IMG/VR virus record: IMGVR_UViG_3300020577_006910
Strand: one strand, 5' to 3'
DNA: 64,000 bases
Source of the DNA: an uncultured virus (IMG/VR IMGVR_UViG_3300020577_006910)
Taxonomy: Duplodnaviria > Heunggongvirae > Uroviricota > Caudoviricetes
The notes under the pieces were generated by a model. That model was not told the DNA's origin. It was given only the letters and a program-made list of their open reading frames with translations, and made no database searches. This document shows, piece after piece, positions 61 through 47,002 of this stretch (within the stretch, counting starts at the first letter, position 1; every line of letters begins with the position of its first letter). A program made the position numbers and the translations under genes.

Positions 61-109
61 TATGCCGTAAGAAGCCCGTTAAGGCGTCTTACAGCCCACA
101 ACACACAAA

Positions 110-424
110 GGAGCTGCGAGGGATCAAACCTCGTCTAGTCTACCACGTCTTAAGTCTTATTAAATCATAACAACCCCCTATTTTAACTCAATAAGTAAGG
201 GCTGCTTTACTTTTGAGCGAGGTTTGAATATTTAATGTTGTTTACTATAAACCCGCAAACAACACGAGTCTTGTTTTTTATAGGTGTAATCTAACTACAA
301 GACGTTTGTATAGATTACTGCAGAAATCCTGCATTCGAGCTGTAGCCCAGATGTTAACGTAGCTGAGCTTCCTACGGATTCAAGACAAGGCATAGGCGGA
401 CTAGCAATATCTTTATTCAGCTCC
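110..424 (-). ncRNA. ssrA: tmRNA (ssrA)-like RNA, atypical
   Basis: Acceptor stem GGAGCUG/CAGCUCC; T-arm CGAGG-UUUGAUC-CCUCG; P2 CUAGUCCGCC/GGUAGACUAG and GUCUU..GAAUC/GAUUU..AAGAC. PK1 CGUAG/CUACG + AGCUCAG/CUGGGCU; PK2 GUAAUCUA/UAGAUUAC + UCUUGU/ACAAGA; PK3 UGUUGUUU/AAACAACA + GCGGGUUU/AAACCUCGC; PK4 CUCAA..AAGUA/UACUU..UUGAG + GCAGCCC/GGGUUGU. 315 nt. Confidence 0.9.
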
Positions 425-432
425 AATTTCTA

Positions 433-636
433 TTAAATGAAAAGTGTTTTTGGTTTAAACCTGCTACCTCTCTCTATTGTATCGAATTCATGCCCGCATG
501 TATTACATTTATTAACCACTACTTTTTCTTCTTTGACAGGATCTACTGGACCGACCCACGTCGGATACATGTCATTACTTTGACATTTTGGACAGCGTTT
601 TTTTGTTTTAGTCCATGGATTTGTGACTGTTGGCAA
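433..636 (-). CDS. small zinc-ribbon protein (NrdR N-terminal-like)
   Basis: CPKC...CNTCGHEFDTIE; GGAG SD upstream of TTG start. Confidence 0.6.
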   Translation of the reverse strand: MPTVTNPWTKTKKRCPKCQSNDMYPTWVGPVDPVKEEKVVVNKCNTCGHEFDTIERGSRFKPKTLFI

Positions 637-754: not shown

Positions 755-1804
755 TTAAGCGGGGCTTGAGATAAGTCTGTAGGTAGAGGTAAAGTTTGCG
801 CTGTCTCTGTTTAGCGCATAGACATGAGCTCTACCCTCTTTACCTACTTGTTTGATGAGTTTTTCTTTGTGAGCTTTGCTCAACATTACCGACACATGTG
901 CCGGGCTTAGCCCAGGTAGCACTGGTTTAAGCTTTTGAAGTATTTGACTGCTTGTCAACTCGGCATCGCACAGACATCCAAGCGCCTGATCGGTAAGCGT
1001 ACTAAGCCTGTTGGACTTACGTCTAACAAGCAATGTTTTCTTCTTCTGAGCAGGTGTTTCTTTTGGAAGTGTCTTAAGCGTACTGTGTAGCGTATCAGAT
1101 ATTTTTTCAGATCCGCTTGACATACGCTTATCGTATTTTTCAACGATTTCCAAAAGCTGCCTCAGCACAGGTTTAAGCGCAGCTACGAGCTCGCCTTCAG
1201 AACCGCTTACTGTGCCAACGTTGACCGTGATTTCAACATTTTGAGTAGAGGTGATAGATGGTGGAGTTGCACTGGAGTACACAGGCGTGTTTTCACCAAG
1301 GTACATGAATGCCTGCTCCTTGGGGAAATACACCAGATCCTCATCGTTAGCCGACAAACTTTCCCAAAGATGAACTACCTGGGAAAGCGTAAACAGTGCC
1401 GCCTGGTTTGGATTGTTTGACCACACGCCTCGTGGGGTATATACCTGATTTGTTCTACCACAAATCAGTATATACTTAATTGCATCGTCTGTCTGTTTTA
1501 GCAACAAAGCCGGATTTTTGTCGCTATCAACGCGACCAGAGTTAAGACACGCATCTAGGTCTACATTGATCTCGGTGGCCAGCAAACGCATGGCCGCTTC
1601 CCACAGTCTGACTGTATGGAACTCCACCGTCTCAGCCTTACCGTGACCAAACGGTTGTATCACAAACTTTTCGCCTTGTACACCTAAAAGACGAGCTTTG
1701 TGATAATGTGAGCTGATACCTTCACCAGGGTCTGAGCGAAGATAGACCCTTGGAAAAGTACGCAACAAACTCTTTGCTGCTTCGCTAGACAATACCTTGT
1801 TCAT
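755..1804 (-). CDS. hypothetical protein with C-terminal winged-helix DNA-binding domain
   Basis: C-terminal LTSSQILQKL...HVSVMLSKAHKEKLIKQVGKEGRAHVYAL fits a BlaI-like wHTH; GGGAG SD. Confidence 0.6.
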   Translation of the reverse strand: MNKVLSSEAAKSLLRTFPRVYLRSDPGEGISSHYHKARLLGVQGEKFVIQPFGHGKAETVEFHTVRLWEAAMRLLATEINVDLDACLNSGRVDSDKNPALLLKQTDDAIKYILICGRTNQVYTPRGVWSNNPNQAALFTLSQVVHLWESLSANDEDLVYFPKEQAFMYLGENTPVYSSATPPSITSTQNVEITVNVGTVSGSEGELVAALKPVLRQLLEIVEKYDKRMSSGSEKISDTLHSTLKTLPKETPAQKKKTLLVRRKSNRLSTLTDQALGCLCDAELTSSQILQKLKPVLPGLSPAHVSVMLSKAHKEKLIKQVGKEGRAHVYALNRDSANFTSTYRLISSPA

Positions 1805-1819
1805 AAAAATATTCTCCCG

Positions 1820-2224
1820 CTAAAGATAGCCCATCTATCTTTAGAAACGCTTACCGGTCTCTGTACGAGACCGGTAAACTTATTTATACTCGTCACTTAA
1901 GCCGAGTTTGATGTCGCATACAGCAGCTACTTTGAACCGAGCGCTCGGGCATTTGGCACGCTGTATACTATCTACCTTGATCAGAGGTAGACCTGAAATT
2001 TACGGCCATCTGAGTCCTGATAATATGCAATACCCATCACGCATTGCATATTTTAGACGAACTCAGAAGAAAGTAAAGAATCAGTAACCTTTCACCACAT
2101 CTAATGGTTAAGGCTCTCTCTTGTTCAAACCTTGACAGCCTGAACAAGAGATTGTTACCGGTAGTCGCTGATTTCAGTGACTACCGGTAAGCTAATAAAC
2201 AAGGCTTTTTTAGGGCCTTGTTTT
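1820..2224 (-). ncRNA. putative structured RNA (about 10 consecutive hairpins) directly downstream of the Ro60 gene
   Basis: No ORF; stems at 1820-1844, 1851-1877, 1888-1907, ~1917-1968, 1971-1991, 2009-2067, 2085-2110, 2117-2151, 2155-2190, 2197-2224. Most G.U extensions favour the minus strand. Confidence 0.55.
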
Positions 2225-2283: not shown

Positions 2284-3897
2284 TTAGAAGCCTGAAACAA
2301 ACTCGGAAATAAGCTGTGGAACGGCGGAATCGAACCCTACCACGTCCATTGACCCTGCATCGTTGGGGTCGGCTACGCTGTATTCAGTAGCTGTTGCGGC
2401 AACGCAGATAAGCTTAGCGTCTATACCCATAGACTGCCTATATTGTTTAAGCGCTTCGTGTGGCTTAATAGTACCTAAATTGGCTTCATTATCAGTATAA
2501 ACGACAAAAGCGTCTACGGGCATCTTACGTGCCTGCGCATCCAGGATTATGGAAGCGGGGTTTGTTGCGCCAAAGCTTATAGCCGACATACGAGTTATTA
2601 CACTATTTACCGTATCGTTGGAATTTATAGCAAAAGGCACTAAATCAGAACTAAATGCACTGCTGTAATAATTGGGTTCCGTTTTAGCCATAATAAGGCT
2701 CATAGCAGCGCAGACGTCTCGCGCTGTAAGCGGTAGATTTCTAACTGGATTTGAACGCATAGAACCAGATACATCTAAACCTAGATAAAAACGTTTATTG
2801 GTAGGTTCAACTGTTTTAAAAGATAACCTAAACGCTTCATCTAAAGCGTTATTAATCTGAGGAATAGGTACCCAAGTACTGGACGTACCTTCGCCTTTAG
2901 AATAGGTGTTCATAGCAATTAAAACATGAATAGGGTGTATTCTAGCATCTTTTAACTGTTCAACGTCAGTTATACGAGCTACGACGTTTGATACGTTTTT
3001 AGATAAAGGTTTAAGTACACCATATTTAGTAAGCCTACCTAATGTTCGGATAAGCGCCGTCATAGGAAGGTTAGGCAATAGTGCTTCCCAGATCTCGGGA
3101 TCACCTGCGAATTTTTTAGGTATCATTTCATGCGTAATTGCACTATTTTGAGTGACAAGATCAACTATCTTTTTGACATCATCAGCCTTTTGCATCTCTT
3201 CATATACGTTAATTAATTTAGGTAGCTTTTCAGTTGTTTTACCGTAGATAATATATTTGTAGAGATCAGAATACACCTCATTAGGTGGTGTAGGTCGTAC
3301 TTTGCGTAAAAGATCTTTATGGGACCACGCACTTCGCGCAACCCCTTCCTCTATAACCCGGCTTTTGTATTTAAGAATTTGATACGCGACATTGTCTACT
3401 GGTTGTTTTGTATAAAAATTAGCAATTGCTTTACGTAGACCGCTTCCCCAATCACGCAATGCATCGCTGTAATGGGCAAACTCAAAAAGGTGCGTACCTA
3501 TACGAGCTACTTGAGGTAATACCGAATAAGCAGCAATTCTTGTAGCTAAGTCACCGTGAGCGGCTGCAGCAGCTAACGCAAATAAAGCAGGGGAGTTTTT
3601 GGGAGCCCTACCACTTTTGCTTATATCGCATATGAGTCTGACAGTAGCTAATCCATTGTTCTTAATACAATTAAGTAAATTACTTGCATTATCCGTAGTC
3701 AACTTACGTGAGTCACAATAATACGTAGGTCGTTCACTTCCTAATATAAGAAAACGAACAAGCTGGGCTTGTTCGTTTATTTTAAATACGTAACCACCTG
3801 CGTTATTTTCAACCATACCAGGTACAGGAGTTGTTTGGCTAGTAACTTTTTTTATTTTTCTAGAGATATCACCGGACATAGATCCGTACTGACTCAT
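2284..3897 (-). CDS. rsr: Ro60/Rsr TROVE-domain RNA-binding protein
   Basis: NNAGGYVF, LVRFLILGS, SGRAPKNSPALFALA, RIGTHLFEF, WGSGLRKA, WSHKDLLR, ARIHP, vWA MIDAS DVSGSM, YTDNE, DVVGFD. Confidence 0.95.
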   Translation of the reverse strand: MSQYGSMSGDISRKIKKVTSQTTPVPGMVENNAGGYVFKINEQAQLVRFLILGSERPTYYCDSRKLTTDNASNLLNCIKNNGLATVRLICDISKSGRAPKNSPALFALAAAAAHGDLATRIAAYSVLPQVARIGTHLFEFAHYSDALRDWGSGLRKAIANFYTKQPVDNVAYQILKYKSRVIEEGVARSAWSHKDLLRKVRPTPPNEVYSDLYKYIIYGKTTEKLPKLINVYEEMQKADDVKKIVDLVTQNSAITHEMIPKKFAGDPEIWEALLPNLPMTALIRTLGRLTKYGVLKPLSKNVSNVVARITDVEQLKDARIHPIHVLIAMNTYSKGEGTSSTWVPIPQINNALDEAFRLSFKTVEPTNKRFYLGLDVSGSMRSNPVRNLPLTARDVCAAMSLIMAKTEPNYYSSAFSSDLVPFAINSNDTVNSVITRMSAISFGATNPASIILDAQARKMPVDAFVVYTDNEANLGTIKPHEALKQYRQSMGIDAKLICVAATATEYSVADPNDAGSMDVVGFDSAVPQLISEFVSGF

Positions 3898-4837: not shown

Positions 4838-5593
4838 TTAAGCATTAGGTAGACCCAAATCGCAAATTTCATCTCCAGACAATTGTTTCTTTTTTGTTGC
4901 GATTAGATAGTCTCCGTATAACGTTTTAGCATGTTCTGCTGAGAGATAAGTTTTGGCAAATAAATCGTAACCTTGATTAGGTAACAATCTGGAGCTGAGT
5001 TGTTGAGATTCAATTTTTTTCCAGTGTTCCAGATCAGGTCGTTCAAAAGTAAACTTAAACCAAATACCGTTAACTCGAATATATCGAATTAAAGGATCTT
5101 TAGAAATAACTACGTTAGGATCTTTAAACACACGACGCGAAATCTTACTGTAGGTACTGGTTGAATATTTTAGCAAAACACCGTCACTGACATAAAAATC
5201 ACCGTCTCGCAGTTCTAGGTCTATCTTGTAAATAGACACAGGATAATACAGTTTATTACCTACAACCCTATAGTTAAGATATACCAATTCCTTAAAAGCC
5301 GCGCGTACATAGGGGTTTTTGTATTTATGACAAATATCAGACCAGACATCATTCCATTTAAAACCTATTTGTGCGTTAAGCCATTTACGCACAAATGTAT
5401 AGTTAATGTTATTGGGCTTATCGCCCCATTTATTATGCAGTTTTTTAAGAGCAGATAACGGCACTAAATTTACATACCTATCGTACTCAAACAAAGTATC
5501 TACGCGTATACGTGATTTACGCGTAAATTTTTTTGACTCGCTGCTATTAGAAAAAATACGCTCGTCTCGAACACCCGTGTTTCGTCTAAGCAT
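4838..5593 (-). CDS. conserved hypothetical protein
   Basis: RKWLNAQIGFKWNDVWSDIC, FYVSDGVL and KKQLSGDEICDLGL resemble a conserved uncharacterised family (recalled, not searched); AAGGAG SD. Confidence 0.7.
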   Translation of the reverse strand: MLRRNTGVRDERIFSNSSESKKFTRKSRIRVDTLFEYDRYVNLVPLSALKKLHNKWGDKPNNINYTFVRKWLNAQIGFKWNDVWSDICHKYKNPYVRAAFKELVYLNYRVVGNKLYYPVSIYKIDLELRDGDFYVSDGVLLKYSTSTYSKISRRVFKDPNVVISKDPLIRYIRVNGIWFKFTFERPDLEHWKKIESQQLSSRLLPNQGYDLFAKTYLSAEHAKTLYGDYLIATKKKQLSGDEICDLGLPNA

Positions 5594-5612
5594 ACAGGCT
5601 CCTTTAACCTAA

Positions 5613-5683
5613 TAACCCTACCTGAATTTGAATCAGGACTGACGCTTTCAAAGAGCGGCGTGCTACCATTACACCATAGGGTC
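5613..5683 (-). tRNA. tRNA-Gln (UUG)
   Basis: GACCCTA/TAGGGTT acceptor; D-arm GTGT-AATGGTA-GCAC; anticodon loop CT-TTG-AA; T-arm CCTGA-TTCAAAT-TCAGG; no encoded CCA. Confidence 0.9.
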
Positions 5684-6068
5684 ATAGATTTGCCTGACTG
5701 TCATGTAATACAGCATGACAATTATGGCAAATGACGTCGCATTTAGCGATCTCTAGGTATACTTCATCTAGAGTTTTACCGATTCTACCGGCTTCAGAGA
5801 TATTAAATTCTTTGGAATTACGATCTCTATGATGAAAACCCAGACAAGCTGGGCGAGATTCGCCACACTTAACGCACTTACTCACTTTTTTAATCTTTAG
5901 TACCTCATCACGAATTTCATTTCTGCGTTCTTTTGTGTTTAAAGGGGATTTTTTAGGATTTACGTATTGCCCACAAGTAACACATCTACAGTTTTTAGTT
6001 ACTACGGGTTTAGCTTTATGTGGGTTACGTCCCCCGAACTTACTGATGGTACGATGCTTCTTACGCAT
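5682..6068 (-). CDS. HNH endonuclease
   Basis: CVKCGE...LGFHHRD...EIAKCDVICHNCHAVLH. Confidence 0.88.
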   Translation of the reverse strand: MRKKHRTISKFGGRNPHKAKPVVTKNCRCVTCGQYVNPKKSPLNTKERRNEIRDEVLKIKKVSKCVKCGESRPACLGFHHRDRNSKEFNISEAGRIGKTLDEVYLEIAKCDVICHNCHAVLHDSQANL

Positions 6069-42901: not shown

Positions 42902-43459
42902 TCAAACAACACATAATTGTGACACTTCATCTTTAGACAAATTTTCGCCCCAACGCTTTTGAATATCAATATCGCCTAATGTGTAATGTAATTTAATTTC
43001 AGGTACTTCTAAATTGGTGCACATGCAGTAAGGTAAAACTTCTTTTGTGACTACGTTAATTTGATCAAATGGGCAAAGTAAAATAATTGCGTCATGAACA
43101 GATAAAACAATTTTGTATTTTAAATGGTTATTTTGCTTACGATAATTAAATAAATTAATTAATGCACAAGACATTGAATCAGCTACGGTACTTTGAATAC
43201 CAAAATTTACTGCCTCACGCTGCATAGCGGCAACTATTTGCCGGTCATCGCAAGGCGGAAAATAGCGATATCTACCATAGACGTTCTTTACATATCCTAC
43301 CTGAATTACCGCATCTTTGCAAGCTTGAATGTACGCTGCAATTTTATCGTACTCGGATAAAAAAGCATTAATCCAAGATTGTGCCTGCTCTACAGTAGCG
43401 TGTACGCCTTGAGCTTTTAATTGCTGACAAATAGCTCTAGCACCACGGCAATAAGGAAT
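42902..43459 (-). CDS. polA: DNA polymerase family A, exon 2
   Basis: Frame is open upstream of the 43225 ATG: IPYCRGARAI...GYVKNVYGRYRYF...REAVNFGIQSTVAD...LSVHDAI (motif C). Confidence 0.93.
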   Translation of the reverse strand: MPYCRGARAICQQLKAQGVHATVEQAQSWINAFLSEYDKIAAYIQACKDAVIQVGYVKNVYGRYRYFPPCDDRQIVAAMQREAVNFGIQSTVADSMSCALINLFNYRKQNNHLKYKIVLSVHDAIILLCPFDQINVVTKEVLPYCMCTNLEVPEIKLHYTLGDIDIQKRWGENLSKDEVSQLCVV

Positions 43460-43571
43460 CAGTTTGTTATCTTAGAGGCTTTTTATCCTCTAACTCTTGT
43501 TATCACTAACAAGCTCGGCATATATTTTCAGCGTATTACGCTGTCGCGGCCTCGTGCCAGGATTATAGTCT

Positions 43572-44528
43572 CTATTGAGGATCACCTGGTATGCTCTGCC
43601 CCTGTTGAGATCTTTGATTCTCAACTTCGGTTCGAATTGTCTCTATCGAGAGTTTTTCGCTTAATTCCGCGATTTTACTTCGGCGTTCTTTTTTCAACCA
43701 AGGACAAACATCTTCGAACGTGGCAAGACGTTCTTCTACAGTTTCCTGTCGTTTATTGTGTAGTTTACCCATGTGACAGGATTCGCAAACAGGTACTAGG
43801 TTGGTTATATCACTGTTTAGTGGATCGCCATCAATATGATGTATGTCGATCTTTACTTCACTAGCGCATATGACACAGCATTTTGGATACTTACGTAAAC
43901 ATACGCGTCTATAGTCGGGAGCATAGTAGCCAATATTTGCTCTATTAGGGTTGTTAATGTTATACGCAGAGTTTTTGTTGTACCTATGATTAAACGGACC
44001 CCACTGAGTATTACCGGATCCGATACCAGATCTAACGACCCTTCCATGTTTTATGCTATACCGAGTATTTTTTTCTTTATTTTTTACTTTTCTACATGCT
44101 TTGCAATAGAGTGCGGATGTTCGCCCTTTAAACTCAAACTCTGTCTTGCAGTTAGTACATACCAATTTTTTAGTTATTTTTGGCGTTGCATCAGACAAAC
44201 CACACGATAAAGAGCAGTATCTGTGCGTTAAGCTATTTGTCTTAAACTCTTTTTTACAGTGTTCACATACACGTGTGTGTATGGGATTAGCCGTCTGATA
44301 AGCGCGTTTGCACTTATTATCGCAGAAACGTTTACGCTTATTGGGTTTAAAGTGCTTACCACACCCTGGTGCTGCACACATAACAGTTTCAGGTAATAAC
44401 GGTAAATTATCAGCATGTCTGCTTTTACATTTACTGGTACAGAAGCGTCCCCATAAATGACCTAATTGTGGTGCGTATGCCTTGCCACAGTACGCACAAA
44501 GTTTATCCGTTGGTTGATCGTTGTTCAT
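43572..44528 (-). CDS. intron-encoded HNH homing endonuclease with tandem Cys4 zinc-finger repeats
   Basis: Four CxxC...(F/Y)C repeats, then CVIC..IDIHHIDGDPLNSDITNLVPVCESCH. Confidence 0.92.
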   Translation of the reverse strand: MNNDQPTDKLCAYCGKAYAPQLGHLWGRFCTSKCKSRHADNLPLLPETVMCAAPGCGKHFKPNKRKRFCDNKCKRAYQTANPIHTRVCEHCKKEFKTNSLTHRYCSLSCGLSDATPKITKKLVCTNCKTEFEFKGRTSALYCKACRKVKNKEKNTRYSIKHGRVVRSGIGSGNTQWGPFNHRYNKNSAYNINNPNRANIGYYAPDYRRVCLRKYPKCCVICASEVKIDIHHIDGDPLNSDITNLVPVCESCHMGKLHNKRQETVEERLATFEDVCPWLKKERRSKIAELSEKLSIETIRTEVENQRSQQGQSIPGDPQ

Positions 44529-44534
44529 GTATCT

Positions 44535-44563
44535 AGTGTAGCTAGTTTGTATTTTGAAGTCAA
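44535..44563 (-). promoter_or_regulatory. sigma70-type promoter inside the intron driving the homing endonuclease
   Basis: TTGACT-17 nt-TACACT, then 6 nt to ATG. Confidence 0.7.
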
Positions 44564-44605
44564 GAAGCTAAAACTAGCTTTTGCTAAAGATCTCTATGTT
44601 GCGAC

Positions 44606-47002
44606 ACCGAAGACAACGGCCTTGGCCGATGTGCGCCAAGACTCCAGCAATTTATCTTTTTTACGAAGCACATTTAATTCTTCAACTGTAAAATCTGATA
44701 GATATTTATCTTTATATTTAAACTCACCCATCATCTTACGCATCATATACGTATGAAGATCTGTACTTTGTAATGTATGTATGAACTTCATATCATTTGA
44801 TACGTAACCCAGCGTCCACAGTTCTGCTTGATTCCAATCGGCTTCGAGTAGAACCATGCCAGGATCAGCCACTAACACTGATTTTGCTAGCTTATAGCGT
44901 GAATCTAAGACATTGTCTTTAGTAAATATTTTAATTAATTCAGCTTCTTGTTTCTTAGGCCAGTTTTGAAGCTGTGGGCTTGTAGCATAGCGACCTGTTT
45001 CAAGGGTAGTTCTAAAAGATGTTCTAAAGCGACCATCGGCGCTTAGATTACCCCCGACACCGCCTTCATATACGCATTCACCTGTTTCTGGATTATGCGT
45101 ATAGGGTGTAAATAGATTTTTAACTAACTGATTTACTACTTTATATTTATGTAAAGTGCTGACGATGGGGCTTTCGTTAACCAGAATACCTAGCGTTTCA
45201 GCGTCAACTGCGGCAGCTGTTACTTGTGTCATATTAGCTGCTTCTACATCTTCCCATGGTAAACTACCAGCTTTACCGCCAGTGGATTTAACCGGAGTCA
45301 GTTTTAATAAATTAGCATCTGGTGGTGCTTTACGCCCCTTCTTATTAAATTTACTAAACAGGACCTCTTGACAGTGTTGAGGGGAATCCGGATTAAACCC
45401 TTCTTCTATAACATCTACTGTCTTTTCTTTACCACGTACAATCTTAGTTTGCTGAACTGTACGGGTTTTCCAATTAACCATTTCTTGTAATTGGTTAAGT
45501 AATTCTTTGGATTTATTTACAAATAAATCTGACAGATCTCTAAGTCTATGTTGATCACATAACAGACCTGTCTCTTCCATTTCTAAAATAGCTTCATTTA
45601 GCGGATGATTAACATTGTAATAAAGTTTATATATATGTTCGTTTGTACTGAGCTCTTTACTTAACAGTAAAAAAACACGATAAGTAACAATAGCGTCCAT
45701 GGCACCGTATGGAATTAGTATATCATCCGGAACTGTGCCATAACCTAATAGTTCCTTTTGTTCTTCACTGATTTTATTTTCAGCAAACCAGTCACGCAGA
45801 GGTTTGTCGTATCGTTGACAATTGAGCATTCTAAAAGCAACAAGTTCTAACTGTTTCTCAAGTGTCTCGTTACCGGGTACTAGATGATACGCTATCATTG
45901 TGTCGAAACCACCCGACACAAATAAAGGCATTAGGTCTAATCCAAAACGACGTAAGATCTTAATGTCGCCTCTAATGTTGTGACCTATCACTTTGTAACT
46001 ATTGGCGTTAAATAGCTTTGTAAGCAGTTGTACAAACGTTTTAAAGTTTTCCGGAGAACCTAATTCTGTGGGTATTAAACCGGCTTTATTAAGATGAAAA
46101 ACAACGCAATCATCTGGAGACCAGGCCAACTGAAAAGTGCGTAATGTGTGACCAGCTCCCCACTCAAGGTCAACTGACATGTACGCATTTTTAATACTAT
46201 CTGTAAACCAATCAACAAAAACAGTTAAATCTGCCAATGTGTCAATTACAATTGGTTTAATGTTTATATGAGCCTGACTGGCAGCTACTTTTTCTTCTTC
46301 ACTGTTAGCTGCCTTAAGTACAGATATAAAGTAATTTATATCTAAATTAAAATCATTTAAAGACTCGGGCGCTTTTAGCACTTCTTCGGGTGAAGTACAT
46401 ACAACGCCAATAGTGCCGTCAGGCATTACCAGTGTAGAACCTCTACAGTCTTTAAACGCTACTTTATGTTTATGTTTATCGTATAAGCGTAAAAAAGCTT
46501 TCATTGCCTCTGCGCCTAACAATAGTACATATTTTGGTTTTACTTTTTCAAATATTTGTTTCAGTAAAAACTGACCTTGCGCAATATTAGAATCTTTTTT
46601 TGTAGCTAAGTGTTTAGGTGGAGTATAGGGGCAAGCACCTGCTACCACCCATCTATTGCAATCAATTTGTTTTTCTTCAAAGGCGTTGCGAACCAGGTTA
46701 CCTTTACGAGAACATCCGTAACGATTGTCACGGGTTTCGGCAGGATCTGGATAACGAGTAAGAATTAAAACATCTGATCTGTATGCGCCAATTACGCCGT
46801 CTAATCGTGTAGGGGGTATAAAGCGCACTGATAACCCACTACCGTCATCCAGAGAAACATCTACTGGATTTGTTAAAAATAATTCAGTTGTCTCTTCCAA
46901 AGACTGCGCGTAAGTTTTTGCAGCTTGGTACACCAGTTGAGACGGGTCCAAGCCTGCCTTCTGTAAATAATCTACCAATTCCTGCTTTATCTGCTGACTC
47001 AT
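44606..47002 (-). CDS. polA: DNA polymerase family A, exon 1 (UDG-like domain + 3'-5' exonuclease + polymerase); spliced product ~984 aa
   Basis: VKPKYVLLLGAEA (UDG-like); VDLE, GHNIRGD, FDTM, YGAMDA (exo); MEETG, FNPDSP, ETGRY..PQLQNWP, EADWNQAEL (motif A), DLH, RTSAKAVVFG (motif B). Confidence 0.94.

Follow-up and report, generated by a model that had tools for sequence, protein, structure and literature searches.

An uncultured tailed phage carries a gene with a transfer-messenger RNA (tmRNA) fold that lacks the bases by which tmRNA is recognized for alanine charging. This raises the question of what such an RNA is charged with, if anything, and what it could do for the phage.

A full-length tmRNA fold in a tailed phage

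The window analyzed here (the whole 64-kb stretch) is part of the phage genome, with nearly all long open reading frames (ORFs) on the minus strand. Its genes include a family A polymerase, a primase, helicases, a B12-type ribonucleotide reductase, ThyX and a DUF3383 protein, and its only tRNA is a tRNA-Gln. ORFs were scanned with Pfam (71 ORFs), PHROGs (60) and NCBIfam (51); the full contig measures 73,602 bases (73.6 kb), and the roughly 9.6 kb beyond the window lie outside these scans. The polymerase is at most ~25% identical to those of isolated phages among the 15 matches listed. Polymerase relatives at 43-44% identity come from contigs measuring 71.9-72.8 kb, with a further contig of 92.2 kb; given how close the former lengths are to that of our contig, the window may contain most of the genome. 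The polymerase gene (42902-47002, minus strand) has an N-terminal UDG-like domain and is split, ahead of its last piece (42902-43225), by an HNH ORF (43572-44528); a group I intron is likely at this point, with no Rfam match there at gathering score. The labelled public runs with the best coverage of the phage are wastewater metatranscriptomes, the small-share runs X8-X17 having been set aside in judging habitat, and contigs of runs X2 (study P2), X5 (study P3), X8 (DNA) and X14 (RNA), from 18 runs, were compared with the window.

The RNA gene comprises the following features:

109-424, minus strand: tmRNA-derived RNA gene, 316 nt up to the discriminator
418-424, minus strand: acceptor stem, 5' strand, with A3 at 422; pair probabilities 0.99-1.0
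405-417, minus strand: D-loop of 13 nt, without GG and without D-stem; GA at 411-410 taken as putative G18/A19
377-404, minus strand: P2, 5' strand (P2a 404-399, P2b 397-387, distal helix 382-377 with pair probabilities of 0.12-0.26)
344-376, minus strand: PK1, 5 + 7 bp (scanner and inspection)
315-343, minus strand: short mRNA-like domain (GCA 332-330, hairpin 333-319, UAA 317-315)
268-318, minus strand: PK2, 8 + 7 bp (scanner and inspection)
220-264, minus strand: PK3, 10 + 6 bp (by hand; missed by the strict scanner)
169-218, minus strand: PK4, 11-12 + 8 bp (scanner and inspection)
135-166, minus strand: P2, 3' strand
134, minus strand: connector from P2a to the T-stem, a single A
117-133, minus strand: T-arm of 5 bp (133-129/121-117), loop UUUGAUC with U56
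109-116, minus strand: acceptor stem, 3' strand, and discriminator (112 is U70, 109 is U73); CCA unencoded; unchanged in the X2 and X5 contigs
64-95, minus strand: stable hairpin in the 3' trailer, putative terminator or processing signal

This is the layout of tmRNA: a tRNA-like domain (TLD) without anticodon arm, P2, PK1, a short frame and three further pseudoknots. The first-pass annotation had described a complete tmRNA architecture (TLD, P2, PK1-PK4), and every element was located on the minus strand between 424 and 109. The MFE fold yields the acceptor stem, T-arm, P2a and P2b (z = -3.97, with 0 of 100 shuffles as stable); pair probabilities in these helices are 0.79-1.0 (0.79-0.96 for P2a and P2b), and the distal part of P2 is weakly paired (0.12-0.41). 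A descriptor of TLD and P2, designed with the phage RNA already in view, matches once in the window and in none of 300 shuffled windows. A strict scan for H-type pseudoknots found three of the four knots, with a chain score of 92, whereas the highest score among 1500 shuffles was 77 and six shuffles reached three knots; the scanner bars a first loop of 0 nt, which PK3 has, and so missed it. A helix between 386-381 and 154-159 was dropped, as it is not kept in a relative described below, and a 43-aa ORF overlapping the RNA gene (295-426) was treated as incidental. Upstream, a small CxxC zinc-ribbon ORF (433-636, minus strand) ends 8 nt from the 5' end of the RNA.

Loss of the alanine identity elements

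The acceptor stem (424-418/116-110) consists of seven Watson-Crick pairs out of seven, among them A422-U112, the equivalent of A3-U70; it holds zero G.U pairs and hence no translocated G.U. Both the A3-U70 pair in place of G3.U70 and the uracil discriminator (U109) had been reported from the window sequence, and both withstand comparison with independent assemblies. The contigs of X2 (1-303 and 354-1160) and X5 (1-261) differ from the window at 0 letters, confirming position 3 in one other study and positions 70 and 73 in two. The G at position 3 and A at position 73 that reads might have revealed did not appear: the contigs keep A3 (X2), U70 and U73 (X2, X5). Because they are identical to the window over these positions, A3 and U73 are not read errors.

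To place these changes, we collected 75 one-piece ARAGORN calls from fetched loci, of which 38 distinct references could be parsed, the remainder being duplicates, calls too close to a locus edge or parse failures. In agreement with the premise that they are near-universal in tmRNA, G3.U70 is present in 37/38 and A73 in 38/38 of these references, positions 3 and 73 being free in the search patterns and U70 fixed for most references. The one reference read without G3.U70 (L358) had been misparsed, and G3 is present at its true 5' end. G3.U70 is termed "completely conserved" in tmRNA in PMC3985003, and a G3A ssrA mutant is described as impaired in alanine charging and ribosome delivery (bioRxiv 10.64898/2026.04.23.720132), the effect on alanine charging being supported also by section 22 of PMC9976931. 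With A3-U70 and U73 both in place, and G3A known as a charging-impaired mutation, the proposed loss of alanine identity is supported.

The RNA might still be an alanine tmRNA weakly charged by a host AlaRS of relaxed specificity, as six of its seven acceptor pairs are those of the ordinary tmRNA stem and tRNA-Ala mutants without G.U work in vivo, albeit with mispairs and not A-U (PMC9976931, section 22). We consider this very unlikely: both identity positions are changed, the stem has no translocated G.U, and of 93 tRNA-Ala all have A73 and none combines G1-C72, G2-C71 and A3-U70.

Other departures proved less telling than first thought. CCA is indeed unencoded after U109, but this is no oddity, since the same holds for 32/38 references (CCA is encoded in 6/38). 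Likewise, the UUUGAUC T-loop and the D-loop without GG are both present as annotated but are not defects, for a U56 T-loop and a missing GG are found in ordinary G3.U70 tmRNAs (L079, L143, L019). The 19-56 elbow pair is normally G19-C56. Among 18 distinct ARAGORN genes with U56, the D-loop has GA in 13, GG in 4 (two of them judged poor calls) and another sequence in 1, and GA and U56 co-occur in tRNA-Ala. Because GA accompanies U56 in 13/18 genes, the missing GG and the UUUGAUC loop can be read as one compensatory change at 19-56, and the elbow is probably intact.

The junction of P2 with the TLD is more divergent. The connector from P2 to the T-stem is 1 nt here versus 3 nt in 29/34 and 4-5 nt in 5/34 measurable references. 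When SmpB contacts are mapped following the numbering of PMC8363625, G405 appears to be the equivalent of E. coli tmRNA G19, with A20 apparently lost; the equivalents of U17, G19 and A334 would be kept, and those of A15, C18 and A20 changed or missing. The features that stay unusual are A3-U70, U73, the 1-nt connector, an A20 that seems to be missing, a short frame and a G at -4 of the resume codon. As a separate observation, the tRNA-Gln(UUG) of the window (5612-5684, minus strand) likewise has A3-U70, U73 and an unencoded CCA; the ORF at 4838-5593 (minus strand) is similar to unnamed phage protein clusters (score 0.93).

Recognition by tmRNA models and search for homologues

The covariance model of Rfam, suggested earlier as a check, does not recognize the RNA: 424-109 falls below the gathering threshold of RF00023, and the sole tmRNA-family match is to RF01851, over 34 nt of the 3' end (10.4 bits, E = 0.92). 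ARAGORN did not call it in the window, returning at relaxed ps70 only wrong, permuted calls, and a profile HMM built from 34 references matches its 3' end only (E = 3.5). Since both alanine identity and the expected model scores are missing, we did not file the RNA as an ordinary tmRNA.

Blastn of the RNA returned four short chance matches against phages and none against plasmids. Sequence patterns run on IMG/VR gave 0, 1 and 64 matches and no homologue, the single match being a fragment of tRNA-Ala whose agreement at the 5' side arose by chance. A metagenome pattern gave at least 120 matches, with no homologue among those listed, and a pattern run on genomes to find tmRNAs of 346-376 nt with A3-U70 likewise gave at least 120, with no A3-U70 tmRNA among the matches listed. 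No similar RNA was found with the descriptor in 80 Ro60 loci, and RF00023 run over 50 records found six tmRNAs above cut-off, all ordinary. Global similarity was highest to L421 and L340 (the latter from Cytophagales), with z values of 3.3 and 2.4 once ends were fixed, as the best of 34 candidates; because this similarity drops with the ends held fixed, an origin in the Bacteroidota is a hint only. The RNA very likely descends from a tmRNA, with weak sequence support for that descent.

Probable maintenance of the fold in a relative

Runs X8 (DNA) and X14 (RNA) contain a relative ~93% identical to the window, with 72 differing letters over 157-1237; the variants discussed here are 40 listed out of a longer list (198 more). 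Of the 10 listed substitutions within the RNA, seven fall at unpaired positions, which make up 37% of the gene (P ~ 0.04), a preference for loops that bears out the earlier argument against simple decay. At paired sites, two of the three listed substitutions (208 and 202, in PK4) keep the pair, and the one at 347 breaks stem 2 of PK1 unless its partner has changed. Six further changes, judged by eye at a loose contig end, comprise three kept pairs, one gained, one bulge and one broken unless compensated; against the window's own 3' strand, those at 399, 395 and 392 keep P2 pairs and that at 390 gains one. A deletion at 211 slightly weakens PK4, and no double compensatory changes in the RNA gene are visible among the variants listed. 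The divergence of the RNA (~5%) is similar to that of a Ro60 coding piece (26/530), and the relative appears to retain most of the fold.

One X14 RNA contig covers 117-382, has adapter sequence at 117 and carries 53 loose letters that reach into the D-loop; X8 DNA contigs continue past both ends of the RNA gene. These contigs, from one study, are a weak hint of a discrete transcript with ends near those of the gene.

A decaying tmRNA relic, still transcribed within an operon, would fit an RNA that lies below Rfam and ARAGORN detection and has many conserved bases changed in this lineage only. We nevertheless regard decay as improbable. All acceptor pairs are Watson-Crick, U56 is apparently compensated, the listed substitutions fall mostly in loops or keep their pair, divergence matches that of the Ro60 coding piece and the RNA contig is nearly bounded by the gene. 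The locus, in sum, probably encodes a maintained, non-alanylated RNA derived from tmRNA.

A short mRNA-like domain

After PK1, an 11-nt linker leads to the hairpin at 333-319. The GCA at 332-330 begins at the 12th nucleotide after PK1, the resume spacing reported for E. coli (PMC2481249), and at position 93 of the RNA; the resume position is 85-100 in 22/23 references, the exception (L079) being mis-started. Read from GCA, the frame encodes AGFLQ followed by UAA, without a hydrophobic, degron-type end, and tags of only 2 residues are known (PMC11915505).

The bases before GCA are C at -5, G at -4 and A at -3. The -4 base is A in 23/23 references, a count that is partly circular as it reflects ARAGORN's consensus, and A86G in E. 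coli tmRNA is reported to leave very low activity (PMC2481249). The pyrimidine-purine pattern upstream of the resume codon (PMC8363625) is retained. Frames with A at -4 begin at 339, 331 or 330; that from 330 ends in VL, and the changes of the relative are, by hand, more conservative in it. In the GCA frame the relative alters the candidate tag from G to E and from F to L. Because its changes are few and all in loops, the relative does not fix the frame.

A serine-like acceptor end

The RNA has no anticodon, so it could be charged only by enzymes that do not depend on one. Serine identity is set by the variable arm and not the anticodon, and recognition by SerRS depends on that long arm together with the G1-C72 and G2-C71 pairs, G73 having moderate weight (PMC9976931, section 26); the serine signature is given in PMC5389517 as a long variable arm with G73 or U73. 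P2 of tmRNA is oriented like a long variable arm (PMC3985003), and in the phage RNA this candidate arm is joined to the T-stem by a 1-nt connector. Such a connector is also the mode in tRNA-Ser (14/27; 0, 2 or 3 nt in 13/27) and, by a crude count, occurs in 24/32 tRNA-Leu.

We compared the acceptor end with 685 distinct tRNAs from the fetched loci (out of 691 parsed, after removal of 'Ser' calls with a short arm and of undetermined, Sec and Pyl calls), a set that is mostly phage and may not represent the tRNAs of the host. The RNA combines G1-C72, G2-C71 and A3-U70 with one of the two serine discriminators. The three pairs occur together in 25/28 tRNA-Ser, 10/35 tRNA-Lys and 0/93 tRNA-Ala. Scored on pairs 1-4 and N73, serine (-4.8 bits) precedes lysine and cysteine (both -8.1) and alanine (-15.5), leading by 3.3 bits; with each tRNA left out in turn, this classifier named 26/28 true tRNA-Ser as such, and eight others were wrongly called. 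The signature is imperfect: tRNA-Ser discriminators are G73 in 21/28, U73 in 5/28 and A73 in 0/28, and the C5-G68 pair of the phage RNA, which is not purine-pyrimidine, occurs in 0/28 tRNA-Ser. Scored on all seven pairs, lysine (-13.9) lies slightly above serine (-14.8). Among three G3:U70 allo-tRNAs, serine was inserted by the G73 variant only (PMC5389517, section 15). The resemblance is also not independent of the loss of G3.U70, because ordinary tmRNA is the source of pairs 1, 2 and 4, so that any G3A change yields the Ser-like signature.

The first-pass annotation had proposed charging with another amino acid, possibly by a phage synthetase. No aminoacyl-tRNA synthetase or SmpB was found in the window ORFs scanned with Pfam, PHROGs or NCBIfam, which leaves the second part of the proposal unsupported; the first can be narrowed to serine, which a host enzyme would attach. 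Charging with cysteine, glycine or lysine, whether through a host enzyme or through a synthetase that the phage encodes outside the window, is the least probable of the readings considered here. U73 alone confers cysteine identity on minihelices (PMC9976931), and the full signature of three pairs with U73 is found in four tRNA-Lys and one tRNA-Cys. Set against this, these synthetases also read the anticodon, which the RNA lacks, glycine requires C2-G71, and the scanned ORFs hold no synthetase.

Rescue RNA or mimic

We tentatively favor a serine-charged rescue RNA, in which the identity of a tmRNA would have moved from alanine to serine. The RNA would be matured by RNase P of the host, by trimming at the 3' end and by the CCA-adding enzyme, and host AlaRS would pass it over. 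Host SerRS would read P2 as a long variable arm and charge the G1-C72/G2-C71/A3-U70/U73 end. With host SmpB and EF-Tu, the RNA would then enter stalled ribosomes, resume at GCA and stop after about five codons, so that ribosomes would be freed without an AA-type degradation tag. The phage would gain a rescue system independent of alanine charging and of conserved tmRNA bases that host defence could target. As a whole, this scenario of a natural Ala-to-Ser switch, with P2 as a class II variable arm and a rescue-active RNA adding a short, non-degrading tag for the phage, is possible but doubtful.

Serine charging comes narrowly first, since the RNA has retained its pseudoknot ring, resume codon and stop and its changes cluster at identity positions and at the arm junction. 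The canonical GCA, the in-frame UAA and the putative U17, G19 and A334 equivalents would serve as its rescue cues. Counting against it are the missing D-stem, C5-G68, the G at -4, the greater frequency of G73 in tRNA-Ser and the altered tag of the relative.

Several of these points would also suit an uncharged mimic of tmRNA or tRNA, matured but never aminoacylated, that titrates host SmpB, and so dampens trans-translation, or absorbs a defence enzyme directed at tRNA or tmRNA. G3A is the classical charging-impaired mutant, the -4 base and tag seem unconstrained, and the U17, G19 and A334 equivalents are apparently retained. A DS6A-like molecule consisting of the TLD only is reported to inhibit tmRNA irrespective of its capacity for alanylation, possibly through titration of SmpB (PMC4131195, citing Mao 2009), and RNA-targeting defence systems with SmpB-like domains have been predicted (PMC11090510). 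However, the TLD alone suffices to titrate SmpB, yet four pseudoknots, a resume codon and a stop are kept here; moreover, the junction that faces SmpB, with A20 apparently lost and a shorter connector, ranks among the parts that have changed most, which is odd for bait. We hold an uncharged mimic to be a conceivable but uncertain explanation, close behind serine charging.

The Ro60 neighborhood

Two neighbors of the RNA gene bear on a further possible function:

2284-3897, minus strand: Ro60/Rsr gene (TROVE and vWA domains), 1.9 kb upstream of the RNA
1873-2173, minus strand: second structured non-coding RNA candidate, between the ORF at 755-1804 and Ro60 (MFE z = -13)

The position of the Ro60 gene, on the same strand, suggests that the tmRNA fold could have been reused as a tRNA-mimic partner, a ligand resembling Y RNA for the Ro60 that the phage itself encodes. 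YrlA RNAs are encoded no farther than 4 kb from Ro60 and share its strand (PMC4201824), as does the tmRNA-derived RNA, and Rfam finds no YrlA in the window; at three related phage Ro60 loci, an upstream tRNA-like RNA with GGUCGA is present. The RNA nevertheless does not combine the other YrlA features, namely the GNCGAAN0-1G motif, D and T stem-loops and an Rfam match. It has no GGUCCGA either, and the motif core minus its first G occurs at 339 only, for which we estimate a chance expectation of about 1/3. P2a was rejected as the bulged helix of a Y RNA, agreeing with GGUCCGA at 5/7 positions (4/7 in the relative). In addition, phage records carrying Ro60 have ordinary G3.U70 tmRNAs, and the second RNA is an equally good candidate. 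A role as Ro60 ligand is therefore unlikely.

The RNA at 1873-2173 is hairpin-rich and forms its own contig in RNA run X14. Of 26 changes in its minus-strand fold, 3 are double compensatory, 9 are single changes that keep the pair, 3 break it and 11 lie in loops; a plus-strand fold has 9 broken. It has no Rfam family and no blastn match in phages, and is a possible Ro60 partner. Contig depth in X14 is 88.7 and 61.1 for the two RNAs and 2.4-4.6 for ORF pieces, values that cannot rank expression. For the ORF at 755-1804 (minus strand) two relatives are known, at 90% and 42%, and its C terminus may form a winged helix; just downstream lies a long, near-perfect hairpin (673-748), whose miRNA matches are incidental. 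The Ro60 search itself returned no close viral locus. The three tRNA-like RNAs at other Ro60 loci (L187:9296-9419, L192:9301-9422, L189:9811-9933) are 122-124 nt long, with GGUCGA in an enlarged anticodon-arm region, and belong to large phages, where they are located upstream of Ro60 at a distance of 70-700 nt. Their scores are those of tRNA and not of YrlA, and they are possible uncatalogued Y RNAs.

Comparison with known tmRNAs and tRNA mimics

Phage carriage of tmRNA is not new, since ~2% of cultured phage genomes encode one (PMC9004378); a full-length tmRNA fold that has lost its alanine identity is what we did not find described within the Creative Commons literature of PMC and bioRxiv. 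Curators are reported to have rejected some duplicate or archaeal tmRNA calls for poor AlaRS features (PMC4131195), and non-alanine variants may for that reason be absent from databases.

With one-piece bacterial tmRNA (SsrA, RF00023) the phage RNA shares a TLD without anticodon arm or D-stem, P2, PK1-PK4, GCA at the 12th nucleotide after PK1 and six of seven acceptor pairs. It differs in A3-U70, U73, the 1-nt connector, a frame of about five codons, the G at -4, the lack of an Rfam or ARAGORN call and its length (316 nt vs 338-433 in 37 tmRNA references). Full-length phage tmRNAs (the mycobacteriophage Cali/Bxz1 type; L287-L291 and the permuted L243 from IMG/VR) are also phage-borne and mostly leave CCA unencoded, several in genomes that carry Ro60, but G3.U70 and A73 are present in 7/7 examined, of which the six in one piece score above the RF00023 cut-off. 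The TLD-only tmRNA of DS6A (PMC4131195, PMC11915505), compared here by its description, is likewise a phage derivative proposed to act on host trans-translation and not to perform it; it comprises little beyond the TLD, whereas in the phage RNA the pseudoknot ring is complete and a short frame is present.

With tRNA-Ser and the serine allo-tRNAs of PMC5389517, the RNA has in common G1-C72/G2-C71/A3-U70, a U73 that is allowed and a long arm 1 nt from the T-stem; unlike them it has no D-stem or anticodon arm and has C5-G68, and its long arm is P2, leading into pseudoknots. YrlA, as described in PMC4201824, is also a tRNA mimic near Ro60 on the same strand, but the phage RNA has no YrlA match in Rfam and no full Ro60 motif, is more than twice as long and contains pseudoknots.

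If charged with serine, the RNA would represent a natural identity switch in trans-translation; if it is an uncharged full-length mimic, it would give the phage an RNA that inhibits ribosome rescue or serves as a decoy for it. Both readings bear on why phages carry tmRNA.

Two further kinds of tmRNA-like element came to light in the loci examined. An IMG/VR contig (L028) holds a DS6A-like, TLD-only element of 68 nt up to the match at 601-621, with G3.U70 and A73 and without an Rfam match at gathering score. In L004 and many similar gut-phage loci, on contigs of up to ~100 kb, tmRNA is represented solely by a 3' fragment whose T-loop has U56; this fragment is probably an attachment site.
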